A DNA stretch of 11,997 nt, taken from contig JANWYM010000071.1 of the NCBI GenBank assembly GCA_025055355.1, positions 1 through 11,997 on the forward strand. Reading direction: 5' to 3'. Below the pieces are notes generated by a model that was given only the letters and a program-made list of their open reading frames with translations, made no database searches and had not been told where the DNA came from. This document shows positions 1 through 11,997 of this stretch, one piece after another. The translations under genes and the position numbers were made by a program. Position 1 is the first letter of the stretch, and each line of letters begins with the position of its first letter. This stretch comes from Abditibacteriales bacterium (lineage in GTDB: Bacteria; Armatimonadota; Abditibacteriia; Abditibacteriales; JANWYM01).

Positions 1-3000
1 CGCAGCGGGGAACTGCCCGCCGCGCATCCGCGCCGCGTAGCGCGGCAGGTGAGCAAGCGTGGCTTGCAGGCACTCCGCCATCTGCGCTTTTTTGCCTTCG
101 GCAGCGACGCAGGCGTTCCGCGCAATCGGGCGGCGCACCTTGTAGTAAGCCCACTCCGCGCATCGCGCTGGCTCATCGCGCAGCACGATGTGCTGCGCCG
201 CCAGGGCGTAGAGCGGCAGTTGAAAGTCCGTGCCTTCGAGGGCTGCCTGCCAGCGTTGATTGCCGCTGGACTTGTAGTCGAACACCGCGTAGCGCGGCGT
301 GCCGTCTTCGTCCGGCGGCAGGCGGTCAATGCGGTCTATCTTCCCCTGAACGCATACTTGTTCCTCTCCGCTGCCGATGCAAAGCGGTTCCTCGCCTGCG
401 TGCATCCCGTAGGTCGCTTCAAAGCGCAGGGGGACGTGTCCCGCTGCCGTCAGGTGCGATTCGTGAGCCAGCCACAAGGCGAGGTCGCGCTGGCAGTTTT
501 GTTTTTCCACCTCCCACAGCCGCTCATCGCCCACCAGCCCGCGCTGCGCTTGCTCGGTAAAGTGGCGTTCGATGACTTCTTCCATCACCGCTCTTGCGAC
601 GTCCATGTTCTCTGCCGTGACCACCGTGCTGCCCGTGACCTGACTCAGTTGAGTGAAAAAACGCCGCAGGATCTCGTGCACCATCTGCCCGCGCTCGCGA
701 TGTTGCATTGTGTCGGTGGGCTCCTCTAACGGCTCAAGGTTCAGCACGTATTTGAAGTAAAAACGCATCGGACACTGACCGAAGGTGTTGAATTGGTTCG
801 CGCTAAAGCGATACCTCGCATGAAACCGCTTCGCCAAATCCTCATGAACCGCCGGGTCGGACAGCACGCCGTCGAAGTGATTGAATGGCTCCGTCGAGTG
901 GCGATGTGTTTCTACGGCGGCGGCGTGCCGCACGAATGTCAACAGATCAGCGGGTAACAGACGGCATATTGCGTGTTGCACATGGGGTATGACGTAGGGG
1001 ACGGCGGCGTCCAGCAGTTCGCGCTGGCTGCAGACGCGATGCAGTTCAGGCACGACGGCGGAAAGTTGCACGCGCGCGCAGACGGTTAGGTCGGTCGCAA
1101 AACATCGCCGCACCGCGTCCACGTAGTAGGAGGTTAGCACGGCGCGCCCTTCGGCGTCGGTGATGGGATAGCAGAGATACAGTCGCTTCGTCGCTCGCGT
1201 GACGGCGGTGTAAAAGAGAAAATCCTCCGCCGAGGTCGGCTCTTCGGGCGACAGCAGGTTGACGCTTTGCGGACGCGGGAACTCCTTCTCTACCAACCCC
1301 GCGATGAAGACGTAAGGGAAGGTCAGCCCGGCGGCATCGGTGACGTTCAGGGCGCGGACACAACCCGCCGAAGCATTCGACGGCGGCGGAGTGGTGAGCC
1401 TCAGCGCGGTTTGCAGTTCGCCCAGAAACGCGGACAGCGCAATCGCCTTTTCCGACTCGTTCAGGAAGGTCTCGGTGAACCGCATATCCTCCAACGCCCG
1501 CTGCAGTTGCTCAAAGGCGTGGAGGTCCTCGCCGCTGAAATTCAGGTCTGCCGCTATCTGCGCGCCGTCGGAATGAATGTCCAACGCGAGGCGTTCGGTG
1601 ATGCCGAAGGCGTCCATCAACTGGCGTATCGCTGCAACAATCTGGGCGCGCGTTTGGGCGCGGGACAGCGGCGCGAGCCGTTGAAAGAACGCCTCGACGT
1701 ATTCCCGCGCGCGGCGCGTCTGCTCCAACTCTTGGGCGAGATGCTCGCCATTCTCTTCAAACTCTTCGGCGAGTTCGCCCCGCTCCCATTTCTCCAAGCG
1801 CGCCTGCAACTGTCGCTCGTGCGTCTGCAAGCGCCGCTGCCAGTTGTCCTTGCCCGACGTGATGCGGGCGCGCCGGGCAACGCGGTCGAGGTCGTCGGGA
1901 GTAAATTGTCGGGAGGGTGAGGCTCCTGCCGAACCGGTGGGTAAGATGGGTTCGGCAGGAGCCTCACCCTCCCAGCTCCACCCGACGTAGTTGGATTTGA
2001 GGAACTGCACCACATCCTCGCGTCGGAAGTCGTCTGCCACGATGCGCAGCAGCGACAGAACGGTTTGCACAGCGGGGGAGCGCAGCGGCGTTTCACGATG
2101 GCTCAGGTGGACGGGAACGCCGAACGCCGCGAAAACTTCCTGCACGAGGGGCGCGTAGTCGGGCAGATGGCGAAACAACAGCGCGATGTCCTCAGGGGCG
2201 GCTTCACCGGCGAGCAGCAATCGCTTGACCTCTCGCGCGATCTCCTCCACTTCACGAAACTGCCCCGCTGCTTCGATGAGTTGCACAGAGTCATCCGCTG
2301 ATGGCTTATTTTGAGCCTCCCCCCGCTCCTCCGTATTAGGGAGGGGAGAGTTTTCGGAGAGGCTCTTATCCTCACGACCCTCAGCGAATAACGTCCTTTG
2401 CAGATGTGCCAACCCCGACTGGTCACTGGTCACCAGTAACGGGCAACTGAGGGCTTTGATAGGAAACCGCTTCTCCCACTCCTGTCGCAGGGCGCGCGCC
2501 TGCTGAAACAACGTCGGACGCGGAGAATCGAGTTCATCGGTCAAGGTAACGCAAGTTTCCTCAGCGCGCTGCACCAGACACTCGACGACATCCCACTCGA
2601 CAGGGGAGAGATGGTTGAACCCGTCCAGCAACAGAACCTTGAGGTCGTCAAACGGCGCAGCATGTCCGCTCAACAACAGAGCGCGGGCGTGCATCAGGCG
2701 TTCGTCGGCGTCGCTGACGTTGTGATGGTGGAGGAGGTTTTGATAGGCGTCGTAGATGAGATACAACTCGCGCCGCTGCGCTTCCAACAGGGAGGACGCC
2801 GCCGCCGTCTGAAGCCACTGCTCTGGCGACAGACCTTGCTGCTTGGTGCGGCGGAGGAAGCCCTGAAGCATGTCCAGAAAACCGGGAAAGGCGTAAACTG
2901 AACGGAAGAAGGTGAAGGCGTCCTGCTGCGCCAAGCGTTCGACTATCTGACGCAGTAAGATGCGCTGGGTCACCGACGGCAGTTCCGTGCGGAACGGGTC

Positions 3001-4366: not shown

Positions 4367-4442
4367 TGGTGGAGAGCCACGGACTCGAACCGTGATTTCC
4401 GCCGTGCAAAGGCGGCGTCGTCGCCGATTGGACCAGCCCCCC
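4367..4442 (-). tRNA. tRNA-Ala (anticodon TGC), CCA encoded
   Basis: Revcomp reads GGGGGGC-TG-GTCC...-CCGCC-TTTGCAC-GGCGG-...CACGG-TTCGAGT-CCGTG-GCTCTCC-A-CCA. Acceptor stem is 7 bp and includes the G3:U70 alanine identity pair. Anticodon loop is CTTTGCAC, with T33 and TGC. T-arm is canonical. Total 76 nt. Confidence 0.85.
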
Positions 4443-4507
4443 TCCTGCAATCTGATTGCGTTCATGAACTCCGTGAACTCATGAACTCATAAGCCCACGC
4501 CTTCTTG

Positions 4508-4583
4508 TGGGGCGACTGGTGGGACTCGAACCCACTCGACGAGAGCCACAGTCTCGCGTGCGCGCCGTTACACCACAGTCGCC
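4508..4583 (-). tRNA. tRNA-His (anticodon GTG) with a genomically encoded G-1 and CCA
   Basis: Revcomp reads G-GCGACTG-TG-GTGT-AACGGCGC-GCAC-G-CGAGA-CTGTGGC-TCTCG-TCGA-GTGGG-TTCGAGT-CCCAC-CAGTCGC-C-CCA. Acceptor stem is a perfect 7 bp. The extra 5' G opposite discriminator C73 is the histidine hallmark. Anticodon is GTG. Confidence 0.85.
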
Positions 4584-4674
4584 ATGTTTATCACTCTCGC
4601 GCATCCCCTTGCCCACCCTCGTCCCGCTTCGGGTTCGGGACTACCGCGCTGCGCACGAATGGCATCACGAACGT

Positions 4675-4750
4675 TGGTGAGGGCGGTGGGACTCGAACCC
4701 GCAATCCTCAGGTTGAAAGCCTGAGAAGTTCACCGTTCCTCCACTGCCTC
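4675..4750 (-). tRNA. tRNA-Glu(TTC)-like gene with imperfect acceptor and T stems; possible pseudogene or non-canonical tRNA
   Basis: Revcomp reads GAGGCAG-TG-GAGG-AACGGTGA-ACTT-C-TCAGG-CTTTCAA-CCTGA-GGATT-GCGGG-TTCGAGT-CCCAC-CGCCCTC-A-CCA. Anticodon arm is perfect, with TTC flanked by T33/A37. D-loop has GG. T-loop is TTCGAGT. The acceptor stem has two mismatches (C5-C68, A6-G67) and the T-stem has one C-A mismatch. Confidence 0.5.
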
Positions 4751-4805
4751 GAAAGAAACATGAACCCCCTGAACCCATGAACTCTTGAACCCTTGAACCT
4801 CTATG

Positions 4806-4881
4806 TGGCGGGGACGACGGGATTTGAACCCGTGACCTCTGGCTTGACAGACCAGCGTGCTGACCCCTGCACCACGCCCCC
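4806..4881 (-). tRNA. tRNA-Asp (anticodon GTC), CCA encoded
   Basis: Revcomp reads GGGGGCG-TG-GTGC-AGGGGTCA-GCAC-G-CTGGT-CTGTCAA-GCCAG-AGGTC-ACGGG-TTCAAAT-CCCGT-CGTCCCC-G-CCA. All stems pair, with one G-U in the acceptor. Anticodon is GTC with T33/A37. Confidence 0.85.
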
Positions 4882-4949
4882 GGTTCGATTTTGGATTTTG
4901 GATTTTGGATTGCGGATTGAGTGACCCCAAAATCCGCGATCTAAAATGA

Positions 4950-4988
4950 AAAGCCCCCTGTCGAATCTCCTTCTCGACAGGGGGCTTT
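4950..4988 (-). terminator. Strong rho-independent terminator: 15-bp perfect GC-rich stem aaagccccctgtcga/tcgacagggggcttt with a 9-nt loop
   Basis: Perfect 15-bp inverted repeat 4950-4964 / 4974-4988. On the minus-strand RNA the stem is followed by UUUUCAUUUUAG. It lies 35 nt downstream of the small ORF stop (5024) and upstream of the tRNA cluster. The flanking A-tract and T-tract would also allow it to terminate plus-strand readthrough. Confidence 0.7.
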
Positions 4989-5023
4989 GGGTGTTGCTGA
5001 TGAGTGATAGGAGACGAACCGTC

Positions 5024-5218
5024 TCAGCGCACTATGCGCTGGCTCACCCCCTGTGCAAAGAAGGCGTCCTGCTCCTGACCGTTACGCTGCGCCAGATTGG
5101 CGACGGATATGGGTAATGAGCAGCGTTCGGCGGATGTGCAAAGGCGCAGGGCACTGAACCATTTCGATTCGTGTCCTGGCTGTGTGACGCCTAATTGCAT
5201 GTTCACGAGGTGAACCAT
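5024..5218 (-). CDS. Hypothetical small protein (64 aa, MVHLVNMQLGVTQPGHESKWFSALRLCTSAERCSLPISVANLAQRNGQEQDAFFAQGVSQRIVR); may instead be the body of a non-coding RNA
   Basis: ATG at 5216-5218 is preceded by GAGGAG (5230-5235), which is contributed by the end of repeat copy A. The stop is at 5024-5026 and the strong terminator follows 35 nt downstream. A putative promoter lies at 5331-5359. Codon usage is weaker than in neighbouring genes (two TTA and two ATA codons), so coding status is uncertain. Confidence 0.25.
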   Translation of the reverse strand: MVHLVNMQLGVTQPGHESKWFSALRLCTSAERCSLPISVANLAQRNGQEQDAFFAQGVSQRIVR

Positions 5219-5232
5219 TGACAGCTTCGCTC

Positions 5233-5312
5233 CTCTGAAAATCGTCCTCGTCCTCATCGTCGTCCTCGTTCTCGAACCGCAAAAACAACTGAGGACGAGG
5301 ACGACGACGATC
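5233..5312. repeat. Copy A of a structured palindromic repeat family (5'-CTCCTCTGAAAATCGTCCTCGTCCTC...CTCGAACC...GAGGACGAGGACGACGACGAT-3')
   Basis: 14-bp perfect stem tcgtcctcgtcctc (5242-5255) / gaggacgaggacga (5291-5304) with a 35-nt loop containing CTCGAACC. The left 27 nt are 26/27 identical to copy B (10612-10638). It lies between the putative promoter at 5331-5359 and the RBS/start of the small ORF, so it would sit in the 5' leader. Confidence 0.7.
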
Positions 5313-5330
5313 GCAGTGACAACGCGCTTG

Positions 5331-5359
5331 ATTATGCTAAAATCTTCCCAGCGCATCAA
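5331..5359 (-). promoter_or_regulatory. Putative sigma-70 promoter for the small-ORF/sRNA unit: -35 TTGATG (revcomp 5354-5359), 17-bp spacer, -10 CATAAT (revcomp 5331-5336)
   Basis: Minus-strand sequence reads TTGATGcgctgggaagattttagCATAATcaagcgcg. The predicted TSS (~5324) places repeat copy A at the very 5' end of the transcript. Confidence 0.35.
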
Positions 5360-7424: not shown

Positions 7425-7608
7425 GCTCTAAACTTTTGCGTTTCGCGCTTTTCTCCCTCCCTGCTGCAGGAAAACGTCATGGCGAGCGGAGCGAAGCCAT
7501 CCCCCTACGGCGGAGATGGCGGCAGCGGCGGGGATGGCTTCGCTCCGCTCGCAATCACAGGCATTTCCGCGGAAAGGGCAAAGCGCAAAAGTTGAGTCTG
7601 GCTCTAAA
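7425..7608. repeat. ~170-bp nested palindromic intergenic element: 23-bp perfect inverted repeat (7482-7504 / 7530-7552, 25-nt loop), 10-13-bp outer inverted repeat (aacttttgcg 7431-7440 / cgcaaaagtt 7584-7593) and 8-bp direct repeats gctctaaa (7425-7432, 7601-7608)
   Basis: gcgagcggagcgaagccatcccc pairs with ggggatggcttcgctccgctcgc as exact reverse complements. The outer arms and flanking direct repeats were read directly. It sits between the convergent genes ending at 7290 (+) and 7604 (-). On the minus-strand RNA the big stem is followed by CAUGACGUUUUCC, so it could act as the M50 gene terminator. Confidence 0.6.
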
Positions 7609-9402: not shown

Positions 9403-9426
9403 TGCGATTCCCCCTCAAAATAAAGA

Positions 9427-9459
9427 AAAGTCATGGGATTCGTTGACTCCCATGACTTT
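9427..9459 (-). terminator. Attenuator terminator hairpin (hp2): 12-bp perfect stem aaagtcatggga/tcccatgacttt with a 9-nt loop, followed on the mRNA by UCUUUAUUUU and then the DAHP-synthase RBS and start
   Basis: Minus-strand RNA reads ...GAAAGUCAUGGGAGUCAACGAAUCCCAUGACUUU-UCUUUAUUUUGAGGGGGAAUCGCA-AUG. This is a canonical intrinsic terminator immediately upstream of the structural gene. Confidence 0.7.
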
Positions 9460-9490
9460 CGGTTGTTCCGAAACGGCGCCAGAAAAACGA

Positions 9491-9519
9491 AAGCCATGGG
9501 ATTCATGCGCCCATGGCTT
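9491..9519 (-). promoter_or_regulatory. Upstream attenuator hairpin (hp1): 10-bp stem aagccatggg/cccatggctt with a 9-nt loop, followed by a U6 tract. Its 3' arm can pair with the 5' arm of hp2 (antiterminator)
   Basis: The hp1 3' arm on the RNA is CCCAUGGCUUUCG. The hp2 5' arm is CGAAAGUCAUGGG. The two are complementary over 13 positions with one G-U. The hp1 5' arm (GAAGCCAUGGGCGC) can alternatively pair with leader codons 23-26 (GCGCUCAUCGGCUC, window 9553-9567), with one bulge. Confidence 0.6.
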
Positions 9520-9547
9520 CCGCGACGGTTCAGGCTGTGCGATACCC

Positions 9548-9631
9548 TCACGCGAGCCGATGAGCGCCCGACGCGAAGTAAAATCGCCAAGCCCAGTATC
9601 CGCCGACTTGTCTGAGTTGTCGCGTGCTCAT
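9548..9631 (-). CDS. Leader peptide (27 aa) MSTRQLRQVGGYWAWRFYFASGAHRLA, with a run of Tyr/Trp/Phe codons (UAC UGG GCU UGG CGA UUU UAC UUC); attenuation leader for DAHP synthase
   Basis: ATG at 9629-9631 with GAGGGA 6 nt upstream. Stop UGA at 9548-9550. It sits ~30 nt downstream of the predicted TSS from a perfect consensus promoter. It is the C-terminal 27 codons of the ORF-track frame 9548..9934. The longer N-terminal extension would span the promoter and is rejected. Confidence 0.6.
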   Translation of the reverse strand: MSTRQLRQVGGYWAWRFYFASGAHRLA

Positions 9632-9664
9632 CGTTGTCCCTCGCAAGGATTTCGCTTGGGGTTG

Positions 9665-9710
9665 ATTATAGCCTGTTATTTGAAAACTGTCAAGAACATG
9701 ACAAAAAAAA
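9665..9710 (-). promoter_or_regulatory. Consensus sigma-70 promoter for the leader + DAHP synthase operon: -35 TTGACA (revcomp 9688-9693), 17-bp spacer, -10 TATAAT (revcomp 9665-9670), with an upstream T8 tract (revcomp of 9701-9710 A-run), UP-element-like
   Basis: Minus-strand sequence reads TTTTTTTTGTCATGTTCTTGACAgttttcaaataacaggcTATAATcaacccc. Both hexamers are perfect consensus. Confidence 0.75.
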
Positions 9711-9827: not shown

Positions 9828-10601
<774 letters not shown>

Positions 10602-10610
10602 GTTCTCTCC

Positions 10611-10683
10611 TACTCCTCCGAAAATCGTCCTCGTCCTCGTCCTCGAACCTCACGAACAACCGACGACGAGGACGATTTTCATG
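10611..10683. repeat. Copy B of the structured repeat family: 16-bp stem gaaaatcgtcctcgtc (10620-10635) / gacgaggacgattttc (10665-10680) with a 29-nt loop containing CCTCGAACCTCAC. On the minus strand it abuts the SDR gene RBS
   Basis: Arms are perfect reverse complements. The minus-strand RNA reads G-AAAAUCGUCCUCGUC-[loop]-GACGAGGACGAUUUU-C-GGAGGAG-uaggagagaac-AUG, so the hairpin base is 1 nt from the Shine-Dalgarno of the SDR gene. Confidence 0.7.
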
Positions 10684-10741
10684 CGGCGTGGTGTCTCGTT
10701 CGGGACAGGAACAACTCCCTTGACAATAACCACCCTCGCCC

Positions 10742-10806
10742 TCCCGAAGCGTCCTCGTCGTCTTCATCCTCGAACCTCACAAACGACCAACAACGAGGAG
10801 GATTTT
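10742..10806. repeat. Copy C of the structured repeat family (a more degenerate tandem duplicate of copy B), lying just after the glutamine-synthetase stop on the minus strand
   Basis: The 40-nt core cctcgaacctcacaaacgaccaacaacgaggaggattttg (10768-10807) is 35/40 identical to copy B cctcgaacctcacgaacaaccgacgacgaggacgattttc (10641-10680). The 5' arm cgtcctcgtcgtc is degenerate. It lies between the glnA-family stop (10814) and copy B. Confidence 0.65.
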
Positions 10807-10813
10807 GCCCCGT

Positions 10814-11997
10814 TCACACGCGTTCAAAATACCGCTGCCGCTCCCAGCAGGTCACGACCTCATCGAACTTCCGCTGCTCGGTGCGGGCGAAGTGCAAGTA
10901 GTGTTCAACCACCTCTTCGCCGAACGCCTGTCGCGCCAGGGCGCTGCTCTCAAAGGCGCGAATCGCTTCGTTCAAACTCTTCGGCACCTGCGGCAAGCCC
11001 TGGGCGGCGTAAACGTCGCCGTCAAAATGCGCAGGCGGTTCGATCTGATTGGCGATGCCATCCAGCCCCGCCGCTAAGGTTGCTGCAAACGCCAGGTAGG
11101 GATTCGCGTCCGCGCCGGGGATGCGACATTCAATCCGCAGCGCGTTGCCGTGCCCTACAACGCGAAATCCCGCCGTGCGGTTGTCGTAACTCCACGCGAT
11201 TGCCGTTGGTGCGAATGTCCCCGCCTGATACCGTTTGTAGGAGTTGACGTTCGGCGCGTAGAACAAAGCGAACTCGCGGGCGTGCGCCATCCAGCCGCCC
11301 AAGAACCAGCGGAAAATGTCGGAACAGTTCACCGTCCCCATCACCACGTCGCCGGGGAACAAGTTGCATTTGCCCTCGGCGTCCCACAAACTCGCGTGCA
11401 GGTGCATTGAAGAGCCCGCCATCTTCTCGTCCCACTTCGCCATGAACGTAATCGCCATCCCCTGCTGCAACGCGATTTCTTTCGCGGCGTGTTTGTAAAT
11501 GACGTGACGGTCTGCCGTCTCCAGAAAGTCGCCGTAGCGCAGGTTGATTTCGTGCTGCCCCGGTCCCCACTCGCCCTTGCTGAACTCGATGGGAACGCCC
11601 GAACGTTCCATCGCCCAGCGAATCCGCCCCACCAAGTCCTCGACCTTTGTGCCTTGCAAAATGTGATAGTCTTCGACATACCATCCGCTCGTTTGCAGGT
11701 CGTGATAACGCTTCTGATGCGCGGATGCGTAAGTCTCCTTGAAGATGAACAACTCCAACTCCGAACCGCCCATAGGCAGATAGCCCATCGCACGCGCTCT
11801 GTCCATCTGCTTCTTCAGAATGTTGCGCGGGGCGACGCTGACGGGAACATCTTGCTCTTCATCGAGCACGTCGCACAGCACCAGCGCCGTTTTGTCCAGC
11901 CACGCGGCGCGGCGCAGCGTTTTCACGTCGGGGAGGCAGCGGAAGTCACCGTAGCCCGACTGCCAACTGGTGAACTTGTAGCCAGGCACGGGGTCCA
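10814..11997 (-). CDS. Glutamine synthetase family protein (GlnA / gamma-glutamyl-polyamine synthetase-like), partial: the N-terminus runs beyond the window end
   Basis: GS signature regions KWDEKMAGSSMHLHASL, NVNSYKRY, RIECRIPGADANPYLAFAATLAAGLDGI and FKETYASAHQ. The first in-window start candidate is the GTG at 11987-11989, but the reading frame stays open to the window edge and ~40-60 N-terminal residues of the beta-grasp domain are missing. Confidence 0.85.
   Translation of the reverse strand, partial: DPVPGYKFTSWQSGYGDFRCLPDVKTLRRAAWLDKTALVLCDVLDEEQDVPVSVAPRNILKKQMDRARAMGYLPMGGSELELFIFKETYASAHQKRYHDLQTSGWYVEDYHILQGTKVEDLVGRIRWAMERSGVPIEFSKGEWGPGQHEINLRYGDFLETADRHVIYKHAAKEIALQQGMAITFMAKWDEKMAGSSMHLHASLWDAEGKCNLFPGDVVMGTVNCSDIFRWFLGGWMAHAREFALFYAPNVNSYKRYQAGTFAPTAIAWSYDNRTAGFRVVGHGNALRIECRIPGADANPYLAFAATLAAGLDGIANQIEPPAHFDGDVYAAQGLPQVPKSLNEAIRAFESSALARQAFGEEVVEHYLHFARTEQRKFDEVVTCWERQRYFERV

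Follow-up and report, generated by a model that had tools for sequence, protein, structure and literature searches.

A probable dispersed palindromic repeat with tandem-hexamer arms between genes of an Abditibacteriales bacterium

Contig JANWYM010000071.1 of the Abditibacteriales metagenome-assembled genome GCA_025055355.1 (11,997 nt, analyzed over its whole length and called the window here) contains three related hairpin-forming elements, copies A, B and C. Copies C and B lie between a glutamine-synthetase-family (GS) gene and an SDR gene, and copy A lies several genes away. These elements are probably copies of a dispersed non-coding palindromic repeat, selfish or neutral in this genome, of the kind represented by repetitive extragenic palindromes (REP), bacterial interspersed mosaic elements (BIME) and miniature inverted-repeat transposable elements (MITE). 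A preliminary description of the window had reported the three elements and offered both a REP/MITE-like repeat and a riboregulator as explanations. The elements themselves and their common orientation, which is that of the minus-strand genes, were recovered: a repeat search found one family of direct repeats (5254-5308, 10625-10679 and 10752-10806), with inverted repeats inside A and B, and a 22-nt degenerate core (TGMGGTTCGAGRAYGARGAYGA) has exactly three matches in the window, all on the minus strand, against 0.00 expected from 200 shuffles. Of the two explanations, the repeat is favored by elements that are multi-copy, break assemblies, are polymorphic within the same gene order and occur in other lineages (including within an rlmN gene), and the riboregulator is not. 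Coordinates are given in Table 1.

The elements are hairpins of 60-90 nt, with stems of about 16-30 bp and loops of 10-25 nt. Their arms consist of tandem hexamers, pyrimidine (CGTCCT/CGTCGT)n opposite purine (AGGACG/ACGACG)n, and are enclosed by a conserved frame, (T)GAAAATC ... GATTTTC-(A/G)GAGGAG. Copy B, for example, reads on the minus strand GAAAATC GTCCTC GTCGTC GG-loop-TTCGAG GACGAG GACGAG GAC GATTTTC, followed by GGAGGAG. The termini TCGTCC...GGACGA can be extended to GAAAATCG...CGATTTTC, but inverted repeats are trivially expected of a palindrome. As minus-strand RNA, copy B is predicted to fold at -41.9 kcal/mol (z = -6.0, 17 contiguous pairs) and copy A at -43.2 kcal/mol (z = -3.4); copy C, at -27.4 kcal/mol (z = -1.2), folds no better than shuffles, its pairing being mostly preserved via G-U pairs (10 of them) and the base of its stem mismatched. 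Since A and B also fold on the plus strand (z = -4.1 for A and -6.6 for B), they are palindromes of the DNA no less than hairpins of the RNA. The RNA of A and B ends in UUUUC, an end that copy C and many other family members do not have. A terminator scan of the window called none of the three copies (the canonical terminator at 4988-4950 was called), and a promoter scan of the linker between C and B found no sigma-70-like site.

The evidence for insertion comes from syntenic relatives. Through SDR orthologues that are 89-95% identical, we collected seven contigs sharing the gene order GS-SDR-DAHP-M50B-...-trxB-small region. The element is missing from all seven at both sites, the GS-SDR spacer and the copy-A junction, and nhmmer with the family profile found zero copies in ~85 kb of the relatives' contigs; among the syntenic loci compared, two (GAGGAC)n copies at GS-SDR are seen in the window only. 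In L142, for example (SDR 95% identical), the GS-SDR spacer is 25 nt long and has no hairpin. At the other site, L142, L143 and L149 have an intact junction, promoter-GCGTCGTCA|ATTTGTAGGAGCGAA-RNA, and copy A of the window falls exactly at this junction. The absence from syntenic relatives marks the elements as lineage-specific insertions: the copies arose in this lineage, and none of the loci concerned (GS, SDR and the downstream RNA) has the element as a conserved regulatory part. Apart from the window, the locus is assembled only in a Logan contig, which ends within copy B (L001 1-47); ending within repeats is typical behavior of short-read assemblies.

The empty sites also bear on translation of the downstream genes. 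They already carry a Shine-Dalgarno (SD) sequence: GGGAGGAGG-N5-ATG before SDR in L142, and TAGGAG before the downstream region in L142 and L143. The ribosome-binding sites (RBS) of the downstream genes are therefore independent of the element. In the window, the SDR gene's own SD (TAGGAGAG) sits 3' of the GGAGGAG that follows copy B, and both GGAGGAG and the SDR start codon fall 3' of the copy-B stem in the predicted minimum-free-energy and centroid folds, unsequestered. The proposal that the 3' end of the element is itself the SD region was thus right in part: GATTTTC-(A/G)GAGGAG does travel with the element (A, B, L105 and L149), but the downstream genes need no RBS from it.

The GS-SDR spacer appears to be a hot spot of hairpin turnover, holding either no hairpin or one of five unrelated tandem-repeat-armed hairpins in each relative. 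The arms are of (CACGAAG) type in L143, L144 and L148, of (GGAGTGAT) type in L145-147, L149 and L150, and of (GTATGGGC) type in L151. In L150 (1230-2132), the gene caller lengthened the SDR ORF by 43 codons through the stop-free upstream hairpin.

We searched for the family outside the window in two scans. A scan of genomes, one per species, returned 20 matches, of which one is a convincing relative (L002, from a metagenome-assembled genome [MAG] of Verrucomicrobiaceae, 53 bits); the other 19 were rejected as chance coding for LRFEDEDE. A scan of metagenomes matched at least 120 loci, and about 16 of the 120 matches listed are true members, to judge from their profile scores and folds. The members form long hairpins with arms (CGTCCT/CGTTCT/CGTCGT)n and (AGGACG/AGAACG/ACGACG)n, a base AATCG...CGATT and variable loops. 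The metagenome pattern forced GGTTCGAG (GGT before TCGAG), so that the sample is biased and loop conservation within this set is not evidence. By sequence and predicted fold, these scans show that the same kind of hairpin occurs at unrelated loci and in other phyla. At L109, for example, the neighboring protein is 100% identical to a record from a Spirochaetes MAG. The Spirochaetes-MAG copy of this locus (L152 1-8861) has many small co-directional hypothetical genes and a gene for a 1356-aa protein, and may be a prophage; a PHROG scan of this context gave weak peptidase and holin matches only, which does not establish a phage origin, and two hairpin patterns had 0 matches in viral contigs.

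Most members are found between co-directional genes, with a stop codon a few nucleotides before them and/or a start codon 8-20 nt after them. The orientation bias is weak, about 13 copies being co-oriented with transcription and 5 opposite. One member is within a coding region: L096 2286-2349 is an in-frame copy in rlmN (gene 1652-2809, minus strand), within the radical-SAM domain, and the encoded RlmN gains about 23 aa (NASSSSSSSSNPTEESITRTRTTTRT) relative to solved RlmN structures (PDB chains). Reading frames through the elements tend to be open: 93 of the 120 frames (78%) through 20 elements are free of stops, compared with 44% in shuffles.

What recurs at unrelated loci is more than the stem. 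GATTTTC-(A/G)GAGGAG is found at A, B, L105 and L149, and GGAGGAG, recurring after A, L105 and L149, is therefore part of the repeated frame. Copy B and L105 have ~55 nt in common upstream of the stem. Their loci are not syntenic (no synteny was found between the window and the metagenome loci carrying the family), so the common flank is repeat and not orthology. A linker motif of this flank, CACCACGCCGCATGAAAAT, recurs in L149 at the contig end, and homologues of the linker module precede hairpins in L105 and L149 (three copies, nhmmer 55, 44 and 43 bits). A mini-ORF in the linker (ending RHHAA before a stop codon) was considered as coding and rejected, its frame not being conserved in L149.

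The contig end of L149 (1-300, minus strand) has a hairpin with the outer frame and flank of copy B (TGAAAATC...GATTTTCGGAGGA) but with arms of (AACTCG)n/(CGAGTT)n and with its loop inverted relative to the flanks. Since TGAAAATC...GATTTTCGGAGGA is identical in the two and the arms differ, the arm unit has been altered on both arms while the frame was conserved. Two further 'GAAAAT...ATTTTC' hairpins follow in L149. Judged by their layout, these three consecutive hairpins and the arrangement C-linker-B in the window (127-nt spacing) look like BIME-style mosaics. The relatives contain many other intergenic hairpins armed with tandem 6-8-mers; such hairpins are thus a general habit in these genomes, of which the (GAGGAC)n family is one example.

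The proposed course of events can be outlined as follows. Copying of the palindrome to new sites would depend on a hairpin or cruciform. It could be the work of a transposase, of HUH/RAYT type or another, or come about by template switching between microhomologies such as GGAG or CGTC. Slippage together with arm-to-arm copying would remodel the arms and keep them complementary, as in the (AACTCG)n/(CGAGTT)n variant of L149. Within an operon, the transcript would form a very stable stem-loop with at most generic effects and no signal-responsive switching: it may act as a barrier to 3'-exonucleases, interfere with ribosomes at a nearby upstream stop codon or, in A and B, terminate transcription weakly at the short U run.

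Several observations weigh against this account. We found no transposase, target-site duplication or conserved target: no direct repeat is seen at the empty-versus-filled junctions of A or B/C, nor flanking 20 copies, whose flanks show a TCGTCC...GGACGA end with A/T-rich neighbors, and no Y1/HUH (RAYT) transposase gene is among the genes of the window. The arms are of low complexity, so that members in different phyla could be convergent and not homologous. Right behind the GS stop codon there is a hairpin of some kind in six of the seven relatives, which could point to selection for a hairpin there and not to neutral insertion. Finally, the transcribed strand of A, B and C is predicted to fold better than its complement, by 7-15 kcal/mol (for copy C, -32.2 versus -17.4), because the mismatches are G-U, and this hints at constraint at the RNA level. 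The same G-U asymmetry is seen in copies opposite to transcription, however, and so is not clean evidence for RNA selection. Compensatory changes were not significant: in a fixed-register comparison of 19 copies, 79.0% of cells are paired versus 77.7% in shuffles (reached by 34 out of 500 shuffles), and 14 double changes are seen versus 9.5 (reached by 28 out of 500). The predicted stems are supported by each copy's own stability and not by covariation.

Selection of a hairpin at the GS-SDR boundary is the main rival to the dispersed repeat. A strong stem-loop after GS and before SDR would then serve as a 3'-end stabilizer, partial terminator or insulator, with a replaceable sequence, which would account for the long hairpins, of five sequence types, after GS in six of the seven relatives. 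We regard this as possible but considerably less probable than a dispersed repeat. The UUUU end of A and B, the greater stability of the transcribed strand with its G-U mismatches, and the co-orientation of most members with their neighbors between co-directional genes are all consistent with it, and the short tandemly repeated repetitive (STRR) hairpins have been proposed to stabilize transcripts or couple translation (PMC2670836). But the 25-nt spacer of L142 has no hairpin, none of the three copies is called as a terminator, the base of copy C is decaying, 5 of about 18 copies are opposite, the G-U asymmetry is also seen in copies opposite to transcription, and one copy is within the coding region of rlmN. 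Selection of this kind is compatible with a mobile origin, through co-option. The riboregulator put forward in the preliminary description, which would respond to a signal (as a thermosensor, attenuator or protein-binding site) and use the 3' end of the element as RBS, is very unlikely. The stem is very stable, and GATTTTC-(A/G)G(A/G)GGAG stands 11-18 nt ahead of the start codon in B and L105 and also ahead of the conserved region after A; yet the element is not conserved at orthologous loci, an SD is already present at the empty sites, the stem does not include the SD, covariation is not significant and we found no alternative pairing of the antiterminator type. The element precedes genes that are unrelated to each other (SDR, a GFO/IDH/MocA oxidoreductase and a putative non-coding RNA), and a search of the window against Rfam 15 at E <= 10 found nothing overlapping any copy.

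Two further explanations start from the sequence of the hairpin itself. In the first, a leader peptide or tiny upstream ORF (M/V/L-RFEDEDEDDF) would control the next gene, its acidic run stalling or destabilizing ribosomes. It is suggested by TTG, GTG or ATG directly before RFE(D/N)ED in A, B, C and L002 (the L002 frame being MRFENEDE-stop). We consider it more improbable still: L105 (TTA) and L106 lack the start codon, no SD lies ahead, the peptide end is not conserved, and the frame is a by-product of (GAC/GAG)n arms pairing with (CTC/GTC)n, which agrees with the earlier view of the acidic peptides as an artefact of the triplet arms. The least credible of the explanations is a tRNA-like T-loop mimic that recruits tRNA-processing enzymes, which was prompted by GGUUCGAG and by the tRNA cluster near copy A; GGTTCGAG does resemble the T-arm of the adjacent tRNA-His and tRNA-Ala. 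It begins the 3' stem arm, however, and is not a 7-nt loop closed by G-C, and the tRNA-side locus of the relatives is the same without the element. ARAGORN and the Rfam tRNA model (RF00005) do not recognize the supposed T-loop and find only four true tRNAs, at 4367-4881.

A dispersed palindromic repeat has precedents among known systems, none of which fits entirely. REP of the GTAG- and CGTC-tagged super-families are extragenic units of 20-40 bp, high in copy number and often clustered with linkers, which carry the unpaired tetranucleotide tag at one end with a 3-nt tail; the loop is short, and the stem measures 5-13 bp in the GTAG-tagged and 8-9 bp in the CGTC-tagged units (Di Nocera et al. 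2013, PMC3733652). The elements here resemble REP/BIME in being short, imperfect palindromes in several copies, found mainly where the genes on either side are co-directional or convergent and often just past stop codons (PMC3733652), with what looks like a linker-joined mosaic (C-linker-B), occasional intragenic copies, variation between related genomes and RNA hairpins. They differ in size (60-90 nt, with stems of about 16-30 bp and loops of 10-25 nt, against REP stems of 5-13 bp and loops of 2-20 nt), in tandem-hexamer arms, and in having neither an unpaired GTAG/CGTC tag nor a CCA tail: the ends AATCG...CGATT are paired and CGTC occurs only within the stem. There is also no RAYT gene in the window. 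Membership in the CGTC-tagged REP was rejected on size and tag. Bacterial MITE such as Correia/NEMIS, ERIC, RUP and YPAL are similar in their 60-130 nt, terminal inverted repeats, insertion polymorphism, intergenic position in operons, long RNA hairpins and some copies fused in frame to ORFs (Delihas 2008, PMC2229807). Unlike them, the elements here show no target-site duplication (flanks of 20 copies, empty sites) and no parent insertion sequence in the loci examined, and the whole element is a low-complexity triplet-repeat palindrome rather than terminal inverted repeats around a unique core.

Rickettsia palindromic elements (RPE) are palindromic repeats able to sit in frame in conserved protein genes (see PMC2229807 and PMC3733652). 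The in-frame rlmN copy of L096 and the few frames with stop codons recall RPE, but there is no sequence similarity, and the copies here are mostly intergenic with one intragenic case seen. STRR units are heptamers in heterocystous cyanobacteria. STRR hairpins are intergenic and, as mentioned, have been proposed to act in transcript stabilization or translational coupling in cyanobacteria (PMC2670836); they share with our elements arms of short tandem units, a position between operon genes and variability between strains at the same spacer. The differences are the hexamer unit in Abditibacteriota, the conserved outer frame and linker, and the occurrence in several phyla. Two other candidates were rejected: PARCEL elements (PMC2996958) are an unrelated 25-residue tandem protein repeat, and integron attC sites would be expected to have R''/R' sites RYYYAAC ... 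GTTRRRY after promoterless cassettes, whereas the ends here have no GTTRRRY core and the neighbors are core metabolic genes in conserved synteny. A literature search for the arm sequence gave only irrelevant primer or coding matches, a search on Abditibacterium repeats gave nothing relevant, and we found no paper or Rfam entry describing the sequence.

We also entertain a more speculative explanation, which we consider unlikely though better placed than a riboregulator: that the hairpins are not classical transposons but products of a dedicated or intrinsic hairpin-building process, which seeds gene boundaries with the frame (TGAAAATC ... GATTTTCGGAGGAG) and its linker and then builds and rebuilds the arms by tandem-unit expansion and templated copying to the opposite arm. 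If true, 'structured spacers' specific to each lineage would result, with (GAGGAC)n units here, (CGAGTT)n units in L149 and still others at the relatives' GS-SDR spacer. Their turnover would be fast, and they could pass between phyla, perhaps carried by phage DNA. Intergenic RNA/DNA structure would then originate and spread in a new way, possibly via a hairpin-specific enzyme.

Other palindromes and tandem repeats were observed in the window and its relatives. A perfect 25-27-nt inverted repeat (GGGAGGGTGAGGCTCCTGCCGAACC and its complement) is within the AddB-like coding region and conserved in both the window (1911-1973) and L142 (10062-10136); it may be an intragenic palindromic insertion. 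An intergenic hairpin at 7476-7558 has 29-nt arms (GTCATGGCGAGCGGAGCGAAGCCATCCCC and its complement), and there are similar hairpins of GCGAAGCGAAG type at L143 4056-4127 and, in L149, downstream of trxB, so to judge from their appearance these look like another repeat family. In the spacers of the tRNA cluster (4463-4496, 4759-4800 and 4884-4947) there are tandem 7-8-mers: (CATGAACT)n, and (ATTTTGG)n, which forms a hairpin. This tandem-repeat-armed style recurs in L143 (13976-14186 and 15041-15119).

All genes neighboring copies A, B and C are on the minus strand, in the order GS, copy C, linker, copy B, SDR, promoter-leader, DAHP synthase and M50B peptidase, followed by thioredoxin reductase, promoter, copy A, a conserved ~210-nt region, terminator, tRNA Asp-Glu-His-Ala, Band-7 and AddB-like. 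Copy C begins 7 nt past the GS stop codon (TGA 10816-10814; C from 10806), not 4 nt as first described. The promoter upstream of copy A has the version TTGACG-17-TATAAT in the relatives. The region after copy A (4950-5234) had been read as a small ORF. It has 92% DNA identity across four genomes whose proteins differ by 5-27%, codon periodicity is absent, and it is predicted to form a closed rod (-101 kcal/mol) with its own promoter and the canonical terminator; a comparison of the region with Rfam gave no match. It is more likely a conserved non-coding RNA, a candidate structured RNA of ~210 nt.

A perfect promoter, TTGACA-17-TATAAT (9693-9665, minus strand), lies in the interval from SDR to DAHP synthase and is followed by a leader ORF of 27 codons (9631-9548, minus strand; MSTRQLRQVGGYWAWRFYFASGAHRLA, then a stop codon) rich in Trp, Tyr and Phe, and by terminator-like hairpins at 9520-9481 and 9459-9417 before the DAHP synthase start. 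This layout is kept in L142, L143 and L149. From its arrangement, the region 9417-9693 looks like a classic leader-peptide attenuator of aromatic-amino-acid genes; an Rfam search of it gave no match.

Table 1. Positions of the three hairpin copies, adjoining features and the GS-SDR spacers of relatives
Feature	Coordinates	Strand	Remarks
Glutamine-synthetase-family (GS) gene	10814..11997	-	Runs past the window edge; stop TGA at 10816-10814
Copy C	10746..10806	-	Degenerate; begins 7 nt past the GS stop codon
Linker module (…GGTTATTGTCAAGGGAG…CACCACGCCGCAT)	10681..10745	-	~65 nt; joins copies C and B
Copy B	10620..10680	-	Near-perfect hairpin; 18 nt before the SDR start codon
GGAGGAG motif	10613..10619	-	Immediately 3' of copy B
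SDR / glucose-1-dehydrogenase-like gene	9828..10601	-	Downstream of copy B
Promoter-like site TTGATG-17-CATAAT	5331..5359	-	Sigma-70-like; upstream of copy A
Copy A	5230..5313	-	Longer arms; hairpin 5313->5237 plus AGAGGAG 5236-5230; between the promoter and the conserved RNA/small-ORF region
Conserved ~210-nt structured region (candidate) and intrinsic terminator	4950..5234	-	Downstream of copy A; terminator at 4988-4950; holds the earlier 64-codon 'small ORF'
GS-SDR spacer, L142	1923-1949		
GS-SDR spacer, L143	6923-7014		
GS-SDR spacer, L145	9937-10001		
GS-SDR spacer, L148	9438-9531		
GS-SDR spacer, L149	3016-3110		
GS-SDR spacer, L151	1685-1774		

If the elements are indeed a dispersed repeat, a tempting false lead is removed: the stem beside the RBS would be an inserted repeat, and not a riboswitch-like regulator of the GS or dehydrogenase genes. 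The elements would represent an apparently undescribed family of long-palindrome repeats in a little-studied phylum, Abditibacteriota, with no description in Rfam or the literature searched. Its unusual traits are the hexamer-tandem arms in a conserved frame, the nearly stop-free reading frames together with the rlmN insertion, and the rapid replacement by other hairpins at the same site. Such repeats break metagenome assemblies, mislead gene callers into extending ORFs and can alter the fate of operon mRNAs, and a model of the family would help to annotate these genomes.

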